From NCBI GenBank assembly GCA_026023565.1, contig JAPETS010000042.1:1-64000 (forward strand): 64,000 nucleotides of DNA, in the 5' to 3' direction. The first letter of the stretch is position 1, and every line of letters begins with the position of its first letter. The DNA comes from Cirrosporium novae-zelandiae (lineage: Eukaryota). The position numbers and the translations under genes are program-made. Under the pieces are notes generated by a model. It was not told the origin of the DNA, made no database searches, and was given only the letters and a program-made list of their open reading frames with translations. Positions 1-42,631 of the stretch are shown here, one piece after another.

Positions 1-1177
1 CACTATATTCATTCATTTGGTTACGGATGGTATTCCTATCTACGATTACATACACAGCGATAGTGAGGTTGAAGAGACCAACCTTAGTAAGTAAGGGAGG
101 CTGTGGTTTCTGTTAAGGATCTCGGAAAATGCCGTGCCAAGACTAGATAGTATAACTAGAATATTTTGGATAAATTTAATAAAGAACCATACACAAAATC
201 ACAGTTGCACGGAGGCGTGATTTTATTTATAATATTCCAGAATTGTGTATGTAAGAATCCAGGATTCTTTTCAGGTAAGGGAGCTGGTATCAACATTTTG
301 ATATACTTATTATGTCGATCATAACGTCCTCTGAGAGTCCTTATGGAAGGCGTGTCTAGCTTCATAAACGAATCCTAAAACTAAATCAGCAAATAATGCT
401 GATTCTTATCGTGTTTTGCTCCCCGCATGACGTACAGTGGTGCGACGTCCATAGACCGTTTCTTAGACAACTACACCTCATAGTGCCATATTCTATCTTA
501 ATGTGGTTTTTTGCAAGAGTTATCTTCATGTTCCGGGTTATTCCATGCCAAGAATAGCTGTATAAATAGTATAACTATTGTAAATAATATCCTAGGAGGT
601 AGCTTAGTCGTAGGCCGACTATAGAGAGGCCACATGCGTACCGCATGTGTACCTCAGGCATCCCGACTAGGGCTAGGGCTGACTTACTAACCGCTTAGTA
701 AGTCTGCACTACAAAAGGGGACACCTTGTACTTAGTAGTCCCCTAAGGAAATACAACTACTTGTATACGCACCCCTATTTCCCCGATCATTACTGGATTT
801 ATTTATAACAATAACTTTCATAGAATCAATTCTACACAAAATAACATTAACATGATCATGTATCAAAGAAAGTAGCCATCCAGTATGCTAATATCAAATT
901 CAAAATACTCAGACCATATAATGAAAGGGGATTGGTGCTATTGTTCGATTGTATTCATATTACCACTCATTGTTCCTGACATCGTTGTAAGTCGGCCATT
1001 CTTTTTAAATCAAGAATTATTCTCTGAAGCGGTGGGGATTTGTTTCACAAATAGAGAGCAGATCTGGACTAAAACACCTCGCTTCTAGATATATAATTGT
1101 TGTATTGTACAACTCGGACTGTAGATCATAGTAGTTCCGGTTTACGCTAGACGCGCTACTCAAGAATTTCTATATTC

Positions 1178-1900
1178 GTGGTTCTTTTTTCAGATTTCTC
1201 AGGAGCAAATCTATTCAATGTAATTATTATATTTCTGCTTGCATACCCTAGTACTTTTTTTATACGTAACTTTAGGATAGCCGTAGTGTCGATTAATCAA
1301 CTGCGGAACAAGTTGGCTGCTCCCGAAAGAGATATTATAATTATATTGCAGACTCTTTATGAAAAAATGAAAAATCTTGCGGTCCAGCGACAGAGACAAT
1401 CTACTCCGACTCAAATGGCTTGCTGGACGTTATATAGGAGGAGAGACTTAGCGGAATTGATTGAATATCTTACTGAACTTGTCTCTGCGCTTGTTGAACT
1501 TGTTCCTACAAAGCCTCAACAGCAGCTATGCAACGCTGAAATTGCAGAAATCAACAATAATAAAAGTCTGGTTGCTTTAAATACTATTCTACGTGAACCG
1601 GTTGGCGAGGATAACGCCCCTCTCGATAGCCTTCTTTTTGAAACTGTTACTTCAAAAATCGAAGAGCGGAGAGGCCCAGTGGCTATAGTTGAATAGAAGA
1701 GAAACAAAACTAATAGCGAATCTATTATGCACCAAGGAGATTATATCGCGAATGATTATCAAGGTCAAATACAGCCAAATGGAGGCAAGCACTTGTTAGC
1801 TGAAGACAATGAATTAGGGACAAACATATATTTCCATCAAGGCGATAGTTTTGGAAATACGAAATACCTTGTTGCTGGAAACTGCCTACGAGTTTGTTAA
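1178..1900 (+). pseudogene. HET-S-like HeLo-domain protein fragment with a C-terminal two-repeat prion-forming-like domain; premature TAG at 1694-1696
   Basis: LYEKMKNLAVQRQRQ..CWTLYRRRDLAELIEYLTELVSALVELVP..QQLCNAEIAEI..SLVALNTIL resembles the C-terminal half of HeLo domains. The same frame continues past the TAG: KRNKTNSESIMHQGDYIANDYQGQIQPNGGKHLLAEDNELGTNIYFHQGDSFGNTKYLVAGNCLRVC*. The HeLo N-terminus is not recognisable upstream. Confidence 0.7.
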
Positions 1901-2282
1901 GCCTCAGTACAATGAGGTTGGTACTAGCAATGGTATTTTCATTGGATAAAAAGTTTTTGGCTGGTCGATGTTCGGGAGGTAGCAAAAACACATGCTTTTT
2001 CCAGGTTATCCATTGCTCTTTTTCATCTAGGGGGTATGAAAAGTTGAGAGGCGTTCTATCCGGAGTCGATATCCAACCTGGGCCGATACTGGACTTGGGA
2101 ACAAATTCTTTCACTGTCAGAAGATCCCACGATCGGATAGTCCAACCGTCTAAGTCCGAAGCTAGAAATTCCTCATCTAGTGAATATGCCAATGCCATTA
2201 TCAGATCTGAAAAGCCTTTGTTAGCCGTAGGTACAAACGTACCTACATAAGATTCAACACGGACGTCAACCCGTTCTAGCCA
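1890..2282 (-). pseudogene. C-terminal WD40 fragment of a probable NACHT-WD (NWD-type) NLR
   Basis: The frame of ORF 1725..2198 extends upstream to KGFSDLIMALAYSLDEEFLASDLDGWTIRSWD (a degenerate GHS..V.AVAFSPDG..LASGS.D.TIRLWD repeat). It is followed by EQWITWKKHVFLLPPEHRP, which resembles the WIT...LWLPPEYRP cap of fungal NACHT-WD proteins. No NACHT domain is visible. Confidence 0.6.
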
Positions 2283-2447
2283 GAAGCAACAAACAATCCC
2301 ACACGCCTCTCAATACCACCTCGCAGCTCCCTAAACTCCCTCGCCGTCCCAAACCCCACAGCTCTTATATATATCTTATATGTCTCGGAAACCCGAAACT
2401 CCAAGCCTTTGGTGGGTATTCATGTATGGCGAGGAATGAAAGACAAC

Positions 2448-3476
2448 GAAGGGAATGGACCAGACCTTGATTGCCCAAGGTCTATTTGGTCTATATACAT
2501 ACGAACTTTTGTGGTGTTGAGGTTTGGGGGGATTTTGGAAGATGTTGGAGTTCGGAATTTTCGAATTTTGGGTTTAATCCAAAGCCGAAAAGGTATAATC
2601 TACCCCCGAATACCCACCCGTTGTGCCCCCCGATTACTCTACTGAAGCCTCCCTTAAGCACAGAGGCTCGCACTGAGTATTCTATTGAACATTTGACTAA
2701 ACTTTTAATTCTAGGTATCCAAAAACCCAAATTTGGCCTCGAATTCTCTACGTGTACGACTTTTTGTTACAATTGAGAAGCACTTGGGAATTGAGGCCAA
2801 TGAGTAGTAGAATGCCGCATGCCCAGCTAAAATAAAGCAGGTTATTCTAGCTTTCATGACATATGTCTAGCTAGCAAGCTGGTTAGGGGCACGTCGTTCT
2901 AGCTGGAGGCATATCATTTTAGTTGGAGGCCGCATGCCTAGCTAGCTAGAATAGGGCAAATTATTCTAGCTTTCATGACATATACCCAGCCAGCAAGCTA
3001 GTTAGGGGCATATTATTCTAGCTAGAGGCATATCATTTTAGTTGGAGGCCGCATGCCTAGCTAGTTAGAATCCTGTTATTCGAGCTGAAGGCTGCATGTT
3101 CAGCTAGAATATAGCAGGTTATTCTAATTTTTATGATATATACCTAGGTGGCTAGCTAGGGACATGTTATTCCAGCATGAGGCCGCATGCTTTGCTAGAA
3201 TGGAGCAGGTTATTCCAGTTTTTATGGCATATGCCTAGCTAGGGATATAATGTTTTAGCTGAAGGCCGTCTGCTCAGCTAGCTGGCTAAAATGCTGTTTG
3301 GTGCGGCAAGGGGAGGGGGGGGTGGAAGTTGCCGCCAAAGCTTCCGCTAAGACCTTGATTTGTCTATTATATAACTATTAACCGACCGATCAAACCTTTG
3401 TTACATCATGTAACGGACGTACTATAGACCGGTTAGACCAAAGCCCTCGGTCTGGTCTGTCTGGTCCATTCCCTTC
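2448..3476. mobile_element. Putative non-autonomous DNA transposon remnant bounded by a perfect 18-bp inverted repeat
   Basis: GAAGGGAATGGACCAGAC at 2448-2465 and its reverse complement at 3459-3476, with subterminal GACCAGACC motifs. Related sequence occurs at about 25081-25282. No target-site duplication is visible. Confidence 0.5.
2815..3290. repeat. Degenerate tandem repeat (about 119-bp period, decaying rightward), CTAG-rich
   Basis: Copies starting at 2842 and 2961 align over about 110 nt and differ only by C/T or G/A transitions. Confidence 0.85.
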
Positions 3477-4748
3477 CTTGATGACAGACAGGGCTTTTTT
3501 GGCGCTCGGAGCTCATCGTGGCTGTCCTGCTTAGAAGGATTCTGTTAGATAGTTTATCTAGCTACCTATACTATAATGGCTTCCATGGGGTTACAATGCT
3601 TTATGTAGTGACTTCGGTCCTACCCCTATCTCTCAACTGCGGTCAAAAAAAGGTACATTCCCCCTCCTCGTTTTTGACGGATTTGCTTATTGTTCTCTCC
3701 TTTCTTTTCATCCAGAGCTGGATTTCCTCGGACTCATTTTGAAGATGACGTGTAGGTCTAGACTAATTGTCTTTCAAATCTGAGTTCAGGCCTGGATCTG
3801 CTTTTTGCTTGTTGCGTGATTGTGGGTTGATTTCCTAGGTAAGCGGGCAGGTAGACAGGAGTAGTCTTAGATCGATGATGGAGGGGGGCCCAGCCTAACC
3901 TACCCTGACCTTACACGATTGTGCGTGTATACTTGTGTCAGGATAAATGGAGATCCTGAATGAGTTACTAGCCCAACCAACCAGCTTGCTAGCCACTAAG
4001 CTTCCCTCTCTCGAACATGTAATGGGTGCTTCTATACGTGGATCCATGAAACTCCCTCCTCTATTTACTTAACTGTACATGTGTGCATGTTAGATAAAGA
4101 AAGGCTTGATAGGGGATGGGGGTAGAACCTGGAGGGGGGTTCATCGTTTTGGATAATGACTTTGCTTAGCTTAGCCTTGCTTACCCCGCCTCGACTTCCC
4201 TGCGTTCCTGCGAGGGAAATTTCGGAAGGGATGGGATGGGTATTTTATTTCATTTGAATGGATGGATAAGTGGGATGGATACATAGAGAAACGCGCGCGG
4301 GGGAGGCTCTTTCTGCGGCAAGAACGAGGCAAACCAAACCAAGGCATAGCAGAGCAAGGCAATGCATGGGGTCGGAAAGGGTGGTAATGATGCCGTACGC
4401 CATATAAATGATAGGGGCATATCTTTCTCTCTTCCTTGCGTTTTCTTCGAGTATAGGTTCTGCAGCGCGCACAAAAAAATAAAATGCAATGCAACGTAAT
4501 GTACTGTACTATACAATCAATCAATCCGGCTCAAATATCTAGTTCATCTATGATTCATCCTCTCTGATCAATCAACCGCATTTTCGATTATTTTTTCCTC
4601 TTCTCCTCCATTTTCTGCATCTTTACCGTACGCACATTGGGTGATCGAGGGGATAGATAAATGGATGGATAGATAGACAAGTATGGAGGACGAAAACGGT
4701 ACACGAATCGTTTATGGCTGTAATTGCAAATGAAAACCAATCCTGATC

Positions 4749-5437
4749 CTATCCCTGTCTCTGTTTATGTTTTGGGTTTTTTTTGCTGTGGTGCGTGTAA
4801 AGAGGTGATTGTTAGTTTGGAATTTGATGCGATTATAGTAGTTTTTTCTTTCGTTTTGATAGAAAGAGAAATTGGGGGCGGGGGAGGGAGGGTGGAGAAT
4901 TGTGGGTAAGAACATACCAGATGATATACACGTATCCCTTTCTTCGTACGCTCTGTGGTGGAGATAGAACAGATTAGCATTAACTCTTTCGTTCTGCACG
5001 CCCCATCTATGCCTTCTCTTTCCCTTTCACCAGTTGTAGAACCCCGTCAACCCATCTACATCTATACCCATCCCCTCCCAAATCAACCAGCCAACCAAAA
5101 AAATCACAAAACACACAAATACACATACCTTACACCCATCACAAAGTTTCTTAACCGAACTCCGAACCTTCATCCCCCGTCTCTGTGTCGTCATTAACAC
5201 CTGTCTAGAAATAACACCATTTGCACCCCTCCATAGTAACGGTCTCGTAATAGATGTTCCAATTGTTCGCGACAATGCATGTGAGGACAACGAAGAGGAA
5301 GAAGAAGCGCTAGAACATGCTCTTCTCTGTAGGGACTGGAGGATTAGAGGTGCGAAGATGGATAAAGTGGATGAGAGGAGGGGGCGGGAGAGGCGGGGAG
5401 TAGCTCGCGCTACTGCTGCTGTGCGGAGGGAGAGCAT
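4749..5437 (-). CDS. RTC6: Mitochondrial ribosomal protein bL36m; exons 5129-5437, 4918-4952, 4749-4785
   Basis: The spliced product ends [38 protein letters not shown], the L36 signature, after an Arg/Ser-rich presequence. Introns are canonical GTATGT..CAG. Confidence 0.93.
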
Positions 5438-20856: not shown

Positions 20857-22757
20857 TCATCTAATCCTATTTTTCCCATCAAAATCGCTCAGCTCATCCA
20901 TCAGAGGTGCGACAATATTGCTATAGACCTCTTTTTGGAAATCTTCGTTATCCAACTTCATATCTTTATCGTGAATTTTGAACGGGCAATCTATGCAACA
21001 TCGGATAACATCATTAAATCGATCACCAGTTTGCGCGAGTATTATCTCGTCATGCATAAGGCGGCGCACCGTTTGTAGTTCTGTAAGAGAAGGAATTTTT
21101 TCCACGATATCCTCTGACTCCTGTAAAGAGATGATCGATCTACCAAGGCCGAGCTCGACAAGGCTCACACCAAGGTTATATAAAATATGGCTCTTGATTA
21201 GTCTATAAGATTCGAGTTCAATCCCATTATTTAGCGAGGCTTTTCGACCTGACCCAATCCTTTTGGAAATGAACGGATTCTGGTAATCGACTTCACTGGC
21301 GCCTTGGCAAGCAAGAAATATATCGCAATTCTGAAGATCATTATGCAACCATTCGGTACCGTCCAGCTGCAGAATACTTGATGCAATTGTAAGCGCAAGA
21401 TAATATCGATCCCTTACACCCATAGACCCCTTGCTCAGGCGGGCTTGGCTTCGCCCCAGGGCTCCACTAAGAGTCAATAACCGATTCTGTGAAATTGAGC
21501 CTCGTAACAGAACTTTGGTTGATGAGTAGACTCTATATACCCGCTGGTCATCAGTGAGGACGCCCAAGCATTCTTTAATGTCATTTTTCGTCTGGTTAAG
21601 AGCTTGACACCAATTAGTTATCGGGACATCATTTGTAGGCATGGAAATCGACGAGCGTAGAGGAAGCAATGCCAACTTATATGTAGCGGAGAGAACGTCA
21701 GCGAATCTGACGGCCTTCTTTCTTGGAGTTACTTGGGGGGGTTCCTTCTCCTGTTGAGGCATTGACAGCTTTGTATTAGGTTTATGTGGAGGCTCAATGA
21801 GTTCTATCTCGATCCTTCGGGATTTCCAGGCACAGATAAGTGCAGCCGGCTGGGGCTCATTCCATAGAAGAATACAGAACCTAGTATCTCGCTCCCCCCT
21901 TTCTAATAACCCTGGCCCAGGTCGAGGTTCGAGGTGTAGATTTGCGACGTGCTGACCCTGGCACTTGCATTTCCACGATCGCTTGATACAGACATTATAT
22001 AGACTTTGTGCCTGATGTCGGATGTGGGCAAAATCAAGAATAGGCCTGGAAGTTGTGCTACGTCGTTTTTGGCGGATAGGCTCTAGGCGTAGGCAGCCTT
22101 CGGTAAGGTTGAAAATCATTCTATTTGAGGGGTTGATTTGTTGAAGGAGTTCGTCGTATTCGGTTTTAGAGAAGCTGAATTTCAATCGCTGATATCCACG
22201 GTCAATGATGCTCCGGCTGGAGTGTATGCCCTTGAAAGTGGTCTTATTAGTTCTTATACTATGAATGAAGGATGGGCCGAAAACAGAATCAGTTCAACTG
22301 AGTGACTTCTAAAAGGATTAACTCCTACGTTCGGTGCTCTACATACCTTTGTTTCGACAACGGATAATTTCAAGAATTTATCAATCAACGTCTTAAAGTC
22401 ATTCAGCTCTGACTCAAGGTTTCTTATGGCCCGGAGATACATGGTATAGGACTCCTCCAAACGTTGTTTTAGTCGAGAATCGTACTCTGGGTCACTACGC
22501 CAAAGATCACTTCCTGGACTGTTAAGAAGAGCTGCGACATCCTCTTCAGAAGCCGGAATGCCATCTAGGAGCATCTCGAGAGAGTTTCTAAAGAAGATCC
22601 CCTCGCATTCCAACTTTGAGGCGTATCTTTCGAGTCTGCGGCGATATTTCCTCCATTCTTTGATCTTCTCCACACCTGTTGCCCATCTGTCTATTGCACC
22701 AACAACCAAAGGAAATATCGCTAGTGCCAACCCCGCAATTTCGACGCCGCTTGCCAT
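20857..22757 (-). CDS. Uncharacterised fungal protein with a HeLo-like N-terminus and a degenerate kinase-C-lobe-like (DUF7580-like) C-terminus; exons 22347-22757, 20857-22230
   Basis: N-terminus MASGVEIAGLALAIFPLVV..WRKYRRRL..E...FRNSLEMLL. C-terminus RYYLALTIASSILQL..TEWL..DIFL, ILYNLGVSLVELGLG, GDRFNDVIRCCI, FQKEVYSNIVAPL. An in-phase GTATGT..AAG intron joins the two ORFs into about 594 aa. Confidence 0.8.
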
Positions 22758-23191
22758 CAGGAAAGAGAATATTGAATAACGGGAAAGGAATTTAAATAGA
22801 AGTTAAAGGTCATAACCAACTGCCTCTCGAGCATACTTGACAAAAATCAACAGGCTGAAGTTCAGCCTTTTTTCGATGTGGGATACGGCCGGTTGGAACC
22901 AGTAACCACAATTATTCTCAAGGCTGGCCCCCAGGTCTACATACATTTCTATTGAATTTATGGCTATATAACTGGAAGAGACGTCAGGGGATAGTGCAAG
23001 TTTAGCTCGGTGCAGTACTGACGAAATTCAAGTTTGTTATGCGGACGTCTGAGAGTTATTGTGAGCAAGTCTGCCGATTTTGTCATTATCATATATTTAA
23101 TGTAGAAGAAGTTGGTTCCACGAAAAGACATAGCAAACTTAAGGAGAGGCCAGTACTAGGCAAGCTATCCATCAAGGCCACAATATCCAAT

Positions 23192-39815: not shown

Positions 39816-42631
39816 ATGATCATCTTCGCAGGTCTCATCTCGGATCCTCCTTTAGGACACACGAGAGTCATTTCATCCTCACAACAAGAGGTACTCGAGC
39901 TTATTTACAGCCATCTACCTAAGTACCTCTGAAGATTCAACATTAGAGCTGAGCATTATCAGGTTAGATTTACAGTTCTCCTTCGCTCTAGCCGTTCATT
40001 TCCCGATCATGGCTGGGAGGTCGCCCTATGGCATAACCTCAATGCCCATCGAGATTGGACCGAATCTGTCTTGAAGTTGGAGACCTCTCCAATTCATCCC
40101 GTATGAACCACTTACTTTATTTCTGGCCTATTGTTTCTCTCATGCTATTATCAGTTTTTCCTAAATCCGAAAACTCGTGCGAACCTTTACCATCACCTAT
40201 TTGCCATAGACATTCCTGTTCCGCCAAGAGATGGGGCTCCCTACGCTTTCACCTTCAAATTCCGTACCACGTCGAGCGAGGACTGGTGCTGGGCAAATGA
40301 ACAATTTTCTACTACTGATGGTGAAATATACCTCCAACCAGAATCTATAGTCTCCCCATCCACACCAACGAATGCAAGAGAGAATCTAGATAGCTACATA
40401 CAAGATCTAAATAAATCGGTATTAGTTCAAAACGAACAGAGCCAATGTCCAGGGGCTAAGATATGGAGCATCACCGGAGATATCCAAGCTGCTGAAAATG
40501 GGAAATCCGGGACTGTGGCACTTACTCTAGGCCTACCGCGGCGTTTCACCCGATGGTTTTCGTTGGTCAGAATATGGAACCCCTGGTTGGCCCCAAGGCA
40601 TGGAAAAAGGGATTTTCTTCCCAGTGAAGATGCCGTTATGTGCTCTTTTCTGCGTTGGGACGGCTATCACCTACTCTTGCTGGCTATTAGTGGATTGGAT
40701 GATGTGCTGACCGTTTTCAAGCATGATGCCGATGGGAAGGTCATTGTTTCAGCACGCAATGACAATACCGAAGCTTCCAAGTTCCAGGTGGTTGCAGCCA
40801 TCGGGGAATCATTTGAATCAGCCAACGCTGCGGCGATGTACCATGCAAGAAAGCTAGCTATGGAGGTTAGGTCTATGCCGAATGACGTCGAGGTTGAAAT
40901 GAAATCTTTAATGGAAAAGGATATTGAGGCGAAATGGTTAGAAAATTGGTACGATGGTTTAACCTACTGTACATGGAATGCGCTAGGACAAAACTTGACC
41001 GAGGAAAAGATACACAATGCTTTGGACATATTGAAGGAAAACGGCATAGCGATAACAAATCTCATCATCGATGACAATTGGCAATCTTTGGACAACCAAG
41101 GACAGTCTCAATTTCAACGTGGGTGGACCAGATTTGAGGCAAACCCAGAGGGCTTCCCAAAAGGCCTCAAACATATGATACAAGAAATAAAAAGTAAGCA
41201 TCCAAAAATTGCACATATTGCTGTATGGCATGCCTTGCTAGGCTATTGGGGTGGCATATCACCTACCGGCGAAATTGCAAAACAGTACAAAACCAAAAAA
41301 GTTCGAAAGCAAGATATAGTGGCTGGTGGCGAGATGACAGCTGTTGATCCAGACGACATATCTCGTATGTATGATGATTTTTACCGGTTTCTCTCCGAAG
41401 CAGGTGTCGATTCCGTAAAGACGGATGCACAGTTCTTTCTTGACCTTTTGGATGATTCCGAGGACCGTCGAAGATTTATCACCGCCTATCAAGATGCATG
41501 GACAATCAACAGTCTACGATATTTTTCCACCAAGGCGATATCTTGCATGTCACAAACGCCTCAGATACTATTCCATACTCAACTTCCAACGAATAAACCT
41601 ACGCTTATGGTTCGAAACTCCGATGATTTCTTTCCAGATGTGCCTGAGTCCCACCCATGGCACGTTTTCTGCAACGCCCACAACTCACTGCTGACACAGC
41701 ACCTCAACATTCTTCCAGATTGGGACATGTTCCAAACATCACATCCATATTCATCATTCCATGCCGCTGCAAGATGTATTTCCGGGGGACCGATATATTT
41801 CACAGACGAGCCAGGAAAACACAACATCGATTTAATTAAGCAGATGACAGCTCAAACCCCGAGAGGCGACACCATAATTCTGAGACCGGGCTTGGTGGGT
41901 AAGACTATCGATGCCTACACTGGATACGATGAACAGCAGGTACTCAAAGTAGGAACATATACTGGAATGCAAAGTACCGGTTGTGGTATGATGGGTGTGT
42001 TTAATGTTGCTCGCCGTGCCATTTCTACTTTTATTAGATTGGAGGAGTTTCCCGGGGTTGAAAGTAGTGAGTACGTCATACATGAGTATACTACAAGGGA
42101 GGTTTCCAAACCTATGAAGAAAACCGACCGATTTGCATTGGTAGCTGTTGAAGTCGAAGTAAAGGGATGGGAGATATTGTCCGCACACCCAGTGCAGAAC
42201 TTTCAAAGGAGTGGATTAGACATAGAGTCAAAGATGGTTACTAAAGTTGCGAATCTTGGCCTACTTCACCAAATGACTGGGTCTACTGCTGTAGCTACAT
42301 CCGACATGTATGTGGAGGAATCTGGACGGTTGAGGATATGGATATCTCTGAAAGCTTTAGGCACACTAGGTTCGTACAAAGTGGGCTGGCGTATTGTCTG
42401 CAAGCTAACTCAGATATAGGGATATATATATCAACTCTTTCAAGTCTATCTGTCGAGGACGACATGCTGGTGACAATCCTCCAAGATGTTATCCCTCGCC
42501 ATACAATCAGAGCAAGAGCCGAGCAGGGGGTGCTGGAGATTGATGTGGAGAAGGCGTGGAAAGAGATGGGGCTGAACAGTGGTTGGAACAATGAAGTAGG
42601 CGTGGAACTATTTATCAAACTTCCAAGTTGA
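39816..42631 (+). CDS. GH36 raffinose synthase/seed-imbibition (Sip1)-like alpha-galactosidase, multi-exon
   Basis: YCTWNALGQ, IIDDNWQ, VWHALLGYWGG, VKTDAQ (nucleophile region), RNSDDFFP, PDWDMFQT, HAAARCISGGPIY.TD.PG. The start codon is uncertain (39771 or 39816). Confidence 0.9.

Follow-up and report, generated by a model that had tools for sequence, protein, structure and literature searches.

Does an open reading frame that ends at a single TAG codon near the left edge of this window (the whole stretch of DNA analysed, 64,000 nucleotides) conceal the amyloid half of a HET-S-type cell-death gene, and what has become of that gene? The + strand is open in frame 2 from position 1151, with an earliest possible start at GTG 1178, up to TAG 1694-1696, beyond which the same frame is free of stops until TAA 1898-1900. 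Translation of 1178-1900, with X placed at the TAG, gives a read-through protein, P0001, with a tail that reads ...RRGPVAIVE-X-KRNKTNSESIMHQGDYIANDYQGQIQPNGGKHLLAEDNELGTNIYFHQGDSFGNTKYLVAGNCLRVC-stop and with two occurrences of HQGD, at residues 185-188 (nt 1730-1741) and 220-223 (nt 1835-1846), a spacing of 35 residues. A frame that stays open behind the TAG and holds two HQGD repeats 35 residues apart, as claimed in the original prediction, is thus seen directly in the translation; the chance of 67 stop-free codons, given the local base composition, is p ~0.009. An intron across the TAG was considered and rejected, because removal of the candidate GT..AG stretch at 1679-1716 (38 nt) would put the frame out of phase, and because homologs code through the region. 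Elsewhere in the window HQGD occurs only once, at 41525, where it lies off-frame inside a large raffinose-synthase-like ORF and is for that reason a chance match and no additional motif copy. The features of the locus are collected in Table 1.

Table 1. Coordinates of the features of the HeLo/amyloid locus and its upstream flank.
Feature	Position	Strand	Evidence or remark
Upstream flank, expected place of the first ~67 HeLo codons (hydrophobic helix, RWG motif)	1..1285		Nothing significant
Short remnant from mid-HeLo (VSINQLRNKLAAPERDIIII)	1286..1345	+	N-terminal profile of 8 close homologs, E 0.001
HeLo C-terminal third and linker, in frame, stop-free	1346..1693	+	Pfam PF14479, E 1.3e-9; tblastn with P0003
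Pseudo-repeat r1, AIVE-stop-KRNKTNSESIMHQGDY, 21 positions, arch glycine G187 at position 19	1682..1744	+	Aligned with HET-s r1 (2kj3)
Premature TAG, position 5 of the motif in repeat 1	1694..1696	+	Aromatic (mostly W) in homologs
Inter-repeat linker (IANDYQGQIQPNGG), 14 residues, first half A-x-x-Y-x-G-Q conserved in the family	1745..1786	+	
Pseudo-repeat r2 (KHLLAEDNELGTNIYFHQGDS) at 1787-1849, followed by FG	1787..1855	+	Aligned with HET-s r2
C-terminal tail (NTKYLVAGNCLRVC) and TAA	1856..1900	+	Longer than the tails of homologs and unlike them

We find that the frame upstream of the stop does belong to a HeLo-domain gene, as had been proposed: the Pfam HeLo model matches residues 61-132 of P0001 at 38.7 bits against a cut-off of 23.2, over profile positions 129-203 of 205, and the domain is detected in 21 of the 24 family members aligned in A1. 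The best intact relative, P0003, matches the N-terminal structures of HET-S/HET-s (2wvo, 2wvn and 2wvq) with E-values from 1e-28, for 2wvo, to 6e-26, and the family profile matches the HET-S HeLo structures at E 1.7e-58. The next match of that profile after the HeLo structures is the HET-s(218-289) amyloid (2kj3/2rnm/2lbu) at E 0.28 (conditional 1.7e-6), which is not significant alone; in the profile alignment with 2kj3, the two repeats of the family fall on r1 (226-246) and r2 (262-282) of HET-s in register, arch glycine over arch glycine. The HeLo match, the HET-S structure matches and the register with HET-s all bear out the original prediction that the gene is a HET-S-like executioner and that it hides an amyloid domain of two repeats. 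The whole architecture of Podospora anserina HET-S/HET-s (HeLo plus HRAM1; 2wvo, 2wvn, 2kj3, 2rnm) is common to the intact homologs of the window gene, whereas the window copy is without the N-terminal two thirds of HeLo and carries a stop inside r1.

Homologs were used to ask what lies opposite and beyond the TAG. A HMMER scan of 1.84 billion representative proteins finds 111 relatives at E<=1e-3, one of which, P0002 (109 aa), is 100% identical to the window from ATG 1367 to the TAG. P0003 (303 aa, 45% identity) aligns over query residues 55-228, across the stop, and by tblastn its residues 127-300 match window positions 1340-1864 at 46% identity (E 3.6e-53), with W opposite the TAG. The intact homologs, 280-307 aa long, are uninterrupted at this position and carry W where the window has TAG; among the 19 homologs that, with the window, make up the 20 rows of our repeat table, which were picked for G at both arch columns, the stop column holds W in 9 and F in 6. 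Both tblastn and the alignments therefore have the intact homologs continuing through the position of the TAG and not ending there, in keeping with the claim that the stop hides a domain. The post-stop ORF piece 1697-1897 alone is found at E 2.2e-18 among 2022 six-frame ORF pieces, with the runner-up at E 2.2; the C-terminal domain profile was made from the C-terminal domains of homologs only, with the window row excluded. Judged by these sequence comparisons, the stretch behind the TAG is real coding homology. A word-based protein search with the read-through protein gave no match among 533 candidates, a word-based search with the A1 profile returned 5 proteins only, and a search of metagenome loci with P0003 as query gave 114 pattern matches, 0 of them confirmed. 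Several of the database relatives share internal starts, P0004 and P0009 near 'DEN..QL' and P0002, P0005 and P0012 at the Met that precedes 'LA..RQ', a pattern suggestive of an intron position that they share, or else of gene models repeatedly cut short, or of fragmentary contigs, within the family.

The repeats themselves were numbered after Daskalov et al. 2015 (PMC4518210, accessible part), with the arch glycine at position 19; HRAMs are described there as two pseudo-repeats of ~21 residues, at the C-terminal end of a HeLo-type protein, with an invariant arch glycine and a loop of 6-18 residues, a range that includes the 14-residue loop of the window. In the window, r1 reads A-I-V-E-stop-K-R-N-K-T-N-S-E-S-I-M-H-Q-G-D-Y and r2 reads K-H-L-L-A-E-D-N-E-L-G-T-N-I-Y-F-H-Q-G-D-S; the two are identical at position 8 (N) and at positions 17-20 (H, Q, G, D), so that Q-G-D occupies 18-20 in both. 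The arch glycines G187 and G222 are present, and both columns are at least 90% conserved in the 24 rows of A1. A profile built from 38 single repeats finds r2 with a domain E-value of 0.028. The spacing of the repeats, to which the original prediction had pointed, is kept in homologs, at 30-36 residues in all 19 and at 34 in 9 of them, compared with 35 in the window and 36 in HET-s. Charges pair between the repeats of the window as K/E at position 6, R/D at 7 and K/E at 9, and over the 20 rows opposite charges outnumber like charges by 8 to 0 at position 6, 8 to 0 at 7, 9 to 0 at 9 and 9 to 1 at 12, as expected from in-register stacking, for which such complementarity between repeats has been taken as an argument (PMC4518210, accessible part). 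The same source expects hydrophobic residues at positions 5, 8, 10, 16 and 18, with Q allowed at 16-18 in some classes; r1/r2 of the window have stop (W in homologs)/A at 5, N/N at 8, T/L at 10, M/F at 16 and Q/Q at 18, and are thus polar at 8 and 18. Compared with the HET-s motif, the window has Q for L/I at 18, N for I/V at 8, and no N at 3. Behind repeat 1 the loop opens with A-x-x-Y-x-G-Q (window 1745-1768; P0003-P0018, A1), a stretch that is better conserved than a flexible linker would be expected to be and that may form an extra structured element.

The fold of the tail was modelled with AlphaFold over 1664-1870, with X at the stop and a 25-row alignment (A2), at a mean pLDDT of 70.2, or middling confidence. 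The model contains four short strands per repeat, in a pattern that recurs at 35 residues. Foldseek with this model gives no significant E-value; the HET-s amyloid 2mus stands out at a TM of 0.62 (rmsd 2.8), against 0.13-0.16 in the other four rows. In a search independent of Foldseek, over 48,161 PDB representative chains, Z>=2 is reached by two chains only, 2kj3_A (HET-s amyloid; Z 5.0, rmsd 3.6 over 67 residues) and 6eka (HELLF amyloid; Z 3.8, rmsd 2.6 over 52 residues), which are both of the solved fungal HRAM solenoids. Structure prediction, which had been suggested for the C-terminal domain, thus yields a predicted fold that matches solely the HET-s and HELLF amyloids among these chains, although the HET-s structure is in the AlphaFold training data, so that fold match and sequence match are not wholly separate lines of evidence.

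The TAG is one of several lesions. When 34 full-length relatives are combined in a profile, the window ORF is matched at positions 120-287 of 290 only, and a close-family profile detects nothing upstream of 1286 of the N-terminal ~67 HeLo residues, among which is the helix that inserts into the membrane; an N-terminal profile of the 34 full-length homologs reaches a best E of 0.59 in the six frames of 1-1700, and Pfam finds no family in the six frames of 1-1300. The N-terminal profile of the 8 close homologs places nt 1286-1372 at its positions 68-96 of 130, and the tblastn alignment of P0008 contains a 42-residue gap. Since the 1286-1372 match directly abuts sequence that lies ~40 residues further on in homologs, we infer an in-frame loss of ~40 codons after '...APERDI'. 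At 1018-1053 (+ strand, frame 1), near the expected place of the decayed first exon, the peptide 'YSLKRWGFVSQI' resembles the HeLo L-x-RWG motif, at a non-significant -5.2 bits (E 6), and may be the last trace of that exon. With 1285 upstream bases in view, the missing 5' part could also lie beyond the left window edge, if a large insertion intervenes.

These findings revise the proposal that the gene was inactivated by one transition compatible with RIP. A single change is not the whole of the damage, since only HeLo positions 129-203 of 205 are found, with the ~67 N-terminal residues undetectable and ~40 codons deleted. What stands is that the TAG is one transition from a sense codon: with W at the stop column in homologs, it is one base off TGG, in a TpG context, and G-to-A in TpG (TGG to TAG) is the change that RIP would make. 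The RIP part of the claim is without support from composition. RIP leaves a raised TpA/ApT and a lowered (CpA+TpG)/(ApC+GpT), each read against its customary threshold. Over 1286-1900, the body of the gene, the two ratios are 0.87 and 1.33, which is no RIP signature; over 1-1150 they come to 1.05 and 0.99, borderline values similar to those of other intergenic, AT-rich kilobases in the window.

We conclude that the locus is very probably a decayed copy, a pseudogene, of a fungal HET-S-type gene, a reading that draws together what is described above on homology and lesions, on the alignment in register with HET-s and on the predicted fold. The locus would accordingly be taken as non-functional, while its intact relatives presumably signal as HET-S does. 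As drawn in the literature, intact members of the family would combine an N-terminal pore-forming HeLo domain with a C-terminal prion-forming domain, and a partner NLR with one further copy of the motif would template the two repeats into a two-rung beta-solenoid. HeLo would then refold and expose its hydrophobic N-terminal helix, and the resulting membrane damage would kill the cell; exposure of this helix and formation of a pore by it are described in the accessible part of PMC4344463. The window copy retains the last third of HeLo and a fully readable two-repeat amyloid domain, and has at least three lesions, namely the first ~67 codons lost or decayed, the ~40-codon in-frame deletion, and the TAG at the aromatic position 5. 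What speaks against a pseudogene is that the ~200 codons of 1286-1897 contain one stop and no frameshift, which is unusually clean for three lesions and would mean that decay set in recently or that the sequence is still under some constraint. Read-through of a single stop uncovers a domain missed by gene models, as the identical database protein ends at the TAG, and the locus is one more case in which a fungal cell-death system under amyloid control has decayed. Family, fold and signalling logic have all been published before, and the locus raises no new question; the intact relatives, P0003 for example, are better objects of study, and reasonable candidates for a comparison of Q-containing HRAM cores with HET-s/HELLF in folding and cross-seeding.

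Two other explanations of the stop were weighed against a decayed HET-S-type gene. That it is an assembly or sequencing error, with the C-terminal half intact in the organism, could be entertained because a single sample contains this DNA and the base is confirmed in no independent strain: among public sequencing runs, one DNA run only, and no RNA run, is listed as containing this stretch. A separately built contig of that sole run agrees with the window over 1000-2100, with 0 differences and a mean word depth of 361, which rules out an assembly slip; the run is probably the source sample itself, so that the agreement adds no independent biology. Were the stop absent, the gene would still have lost its N-terminal part and suffered the internal deletion, and we regard an error as extremely unlikely. 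A locus that is still useful would make either a HeLo fragment of 109 residues (identical to P0002), a protein translated through the stop, or a peptide from the tail alone that serves as prion template or decoy in the manner of non-toxic HET-s; the Podospora non-toxic allele does act as a prion trigger (PMC4344463, accessible part), and behind the stop the window retains 67 open codons, improbable by chance as computed above, along with the near-invariant G187 and G222 and the Q-G-D triplets. Yet the whole tail has no start codon, with ATG 1727 inside r1, repeat 1 is broken at a conserved core position and there is no partner motif within the window, which together leave a useful product very unlikely.

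Another alternative concerns the motif, which had been put forward as a possibly new amyloid-motif variant, and would make the amyloid domain a new class outside HRAM1-5 with the window as a broken example. PF11558 (HET-s_218-289), which marks canonical HRAM1, has no match in the window at E<=1 and, of 24 family members, matches a single one (E 0.061). At position 3, r1 has A/V and r2 has Y/L, against N, Q and H in HRAM1-3 (PMC4518210, accessible part), position 8 is polar (N/S) where the core of HET-s is hydrophobic, and the start of the linker is conserved. The family patterns are W-K-x-[NS]-K-x-G-[DE]-G-S-[KR]-I-x-Q-G-D for r1 and [ED]-[DE]-[SN]-x-F-G-K-N-V-x-F-x-Q-G-x-x-Y-G for r2. The PP motif N-x-G-x-Q-x-G-x-N, pseudo-palindromic around Q (PMC9815663), is absent from P0001 residues 168-240. 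Against a new class, the traits that define HRAMs are present (two repeats behind a HeLo domain, G19, a loop of 14 residues, complementary charges), PF11558 is matched by no more than about a quarter of HRAMs (PMC4518210, accessible part), and Q before the arch glycine is already in print: some HRAM classes have Q at 16-18, with Q at 18 named for HRAM4 (same source), and the accessible part of a 2020 preprint on HELLF describes a 'QG(QI)' sub-motif, with the G numbered 17, in a class called HRAM5. That class of Podospora HELLF (6eka) is HRAM5 in both a 2017 review and the preprint. With the family compared by text descriptions only, and with class names and position numbers that differ between papers, the likeness to the Q-G classes (HRAM4 and the HELLF class) lies in the Q right before the invariant G, found in both repeats of the window and of 11 of the 19 homologs. 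The HELLF class differs in having QxFG at the start of its repeats (2020 preprint, accessible part), a sub-motif that is not present in the window, which reads V-E-stop-K in r1 and L-L-A-E in r2, and in its effector, which is HeLo-like in the HELLF class and true HeLo in the family of the window. Membership in the HRAM superfamily is certain, and we judge the motif, in which Q stands ahead of the arch glycine, to be a member of that published family and not a new kind; a class outside HRAM1-5 is unlikely. Rather improbable, too, is a combined reading in which the family is an HRAM sub-class beyond HRAM1-5 whose hydrophobic core pair is replaced by a polar N/S(8)-Q(18) ladder, and the window tail has been kept as a template or decoy.

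An adjacent partner NLR gene, with a third motif copy (r0) at its N-terminus, was looked for within the window, with the DNA to the left of position 1 outside the view. The domain profile and the single-repeat profile find no third copy of the motif in six frames of the whole 64 kb, and no NACHT or NB-ARC domain occurs in 32 of the 42 ORFs of at least 140 aa; of the other ten, two were searched separately and eight overlap longer ORFs. In six frames, the flanks 1-1300 and 1900-5200 contain no family save a weak ribosomal L36 match, and the genes to the right are housekeeping genes (threonine dehydratase, PIG-U, pescadillo and others). In Podospora, by comparison, only 0.6 kb separates het-S from the NLR gene nwd2, which is divergently transcribed (PMC4344463, accessible part). 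The nwd2 pseudogene of het-s strains, described in the same source, is a precedent for decay of the parts of an amyloid pair after loss of partner function, with the difference that in that case the NLR was broken, by a transposon scar, whereas in the window it is the executioner that has been damaged, with no NLR in sight.

Several minor observations were made in the neighbourhood. Downstream, 2783-3281 is an array of degenerate tandem units, with a 119-nt pair at 87% identity and 88-nt and 50-nt families, bracketed by a 22-nt inverted repeat (2444-2465 / 3459-3480, 95% complementary, 993 nt between the arms); the whole resembles a small element of foldback or MITE type, a short way downstream of the relic. 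Both strands are open around the end of the gene, the minus strand over 1728-2309 (194 codons) and the plus strand over 1849-2250 (133 codons stop to stop), the minus frame overlapping the amyloid coding region; as a real gene the minus ORF was rejected, with no Pfam family and no homolog in a word-based search of 59 candidates. Further away, within 20860-22802 on the minus strand, one ORF carries Pfam DUF7580 (E 4.6e-21), and in the ORF upstream of and adjacent to it, 22745-22689 is weakly like the HeLo N-terminal helix (tblastn E 8.2, not significant); the DUF7580 locus may encode another membrane-targeting protein of cell-death type.
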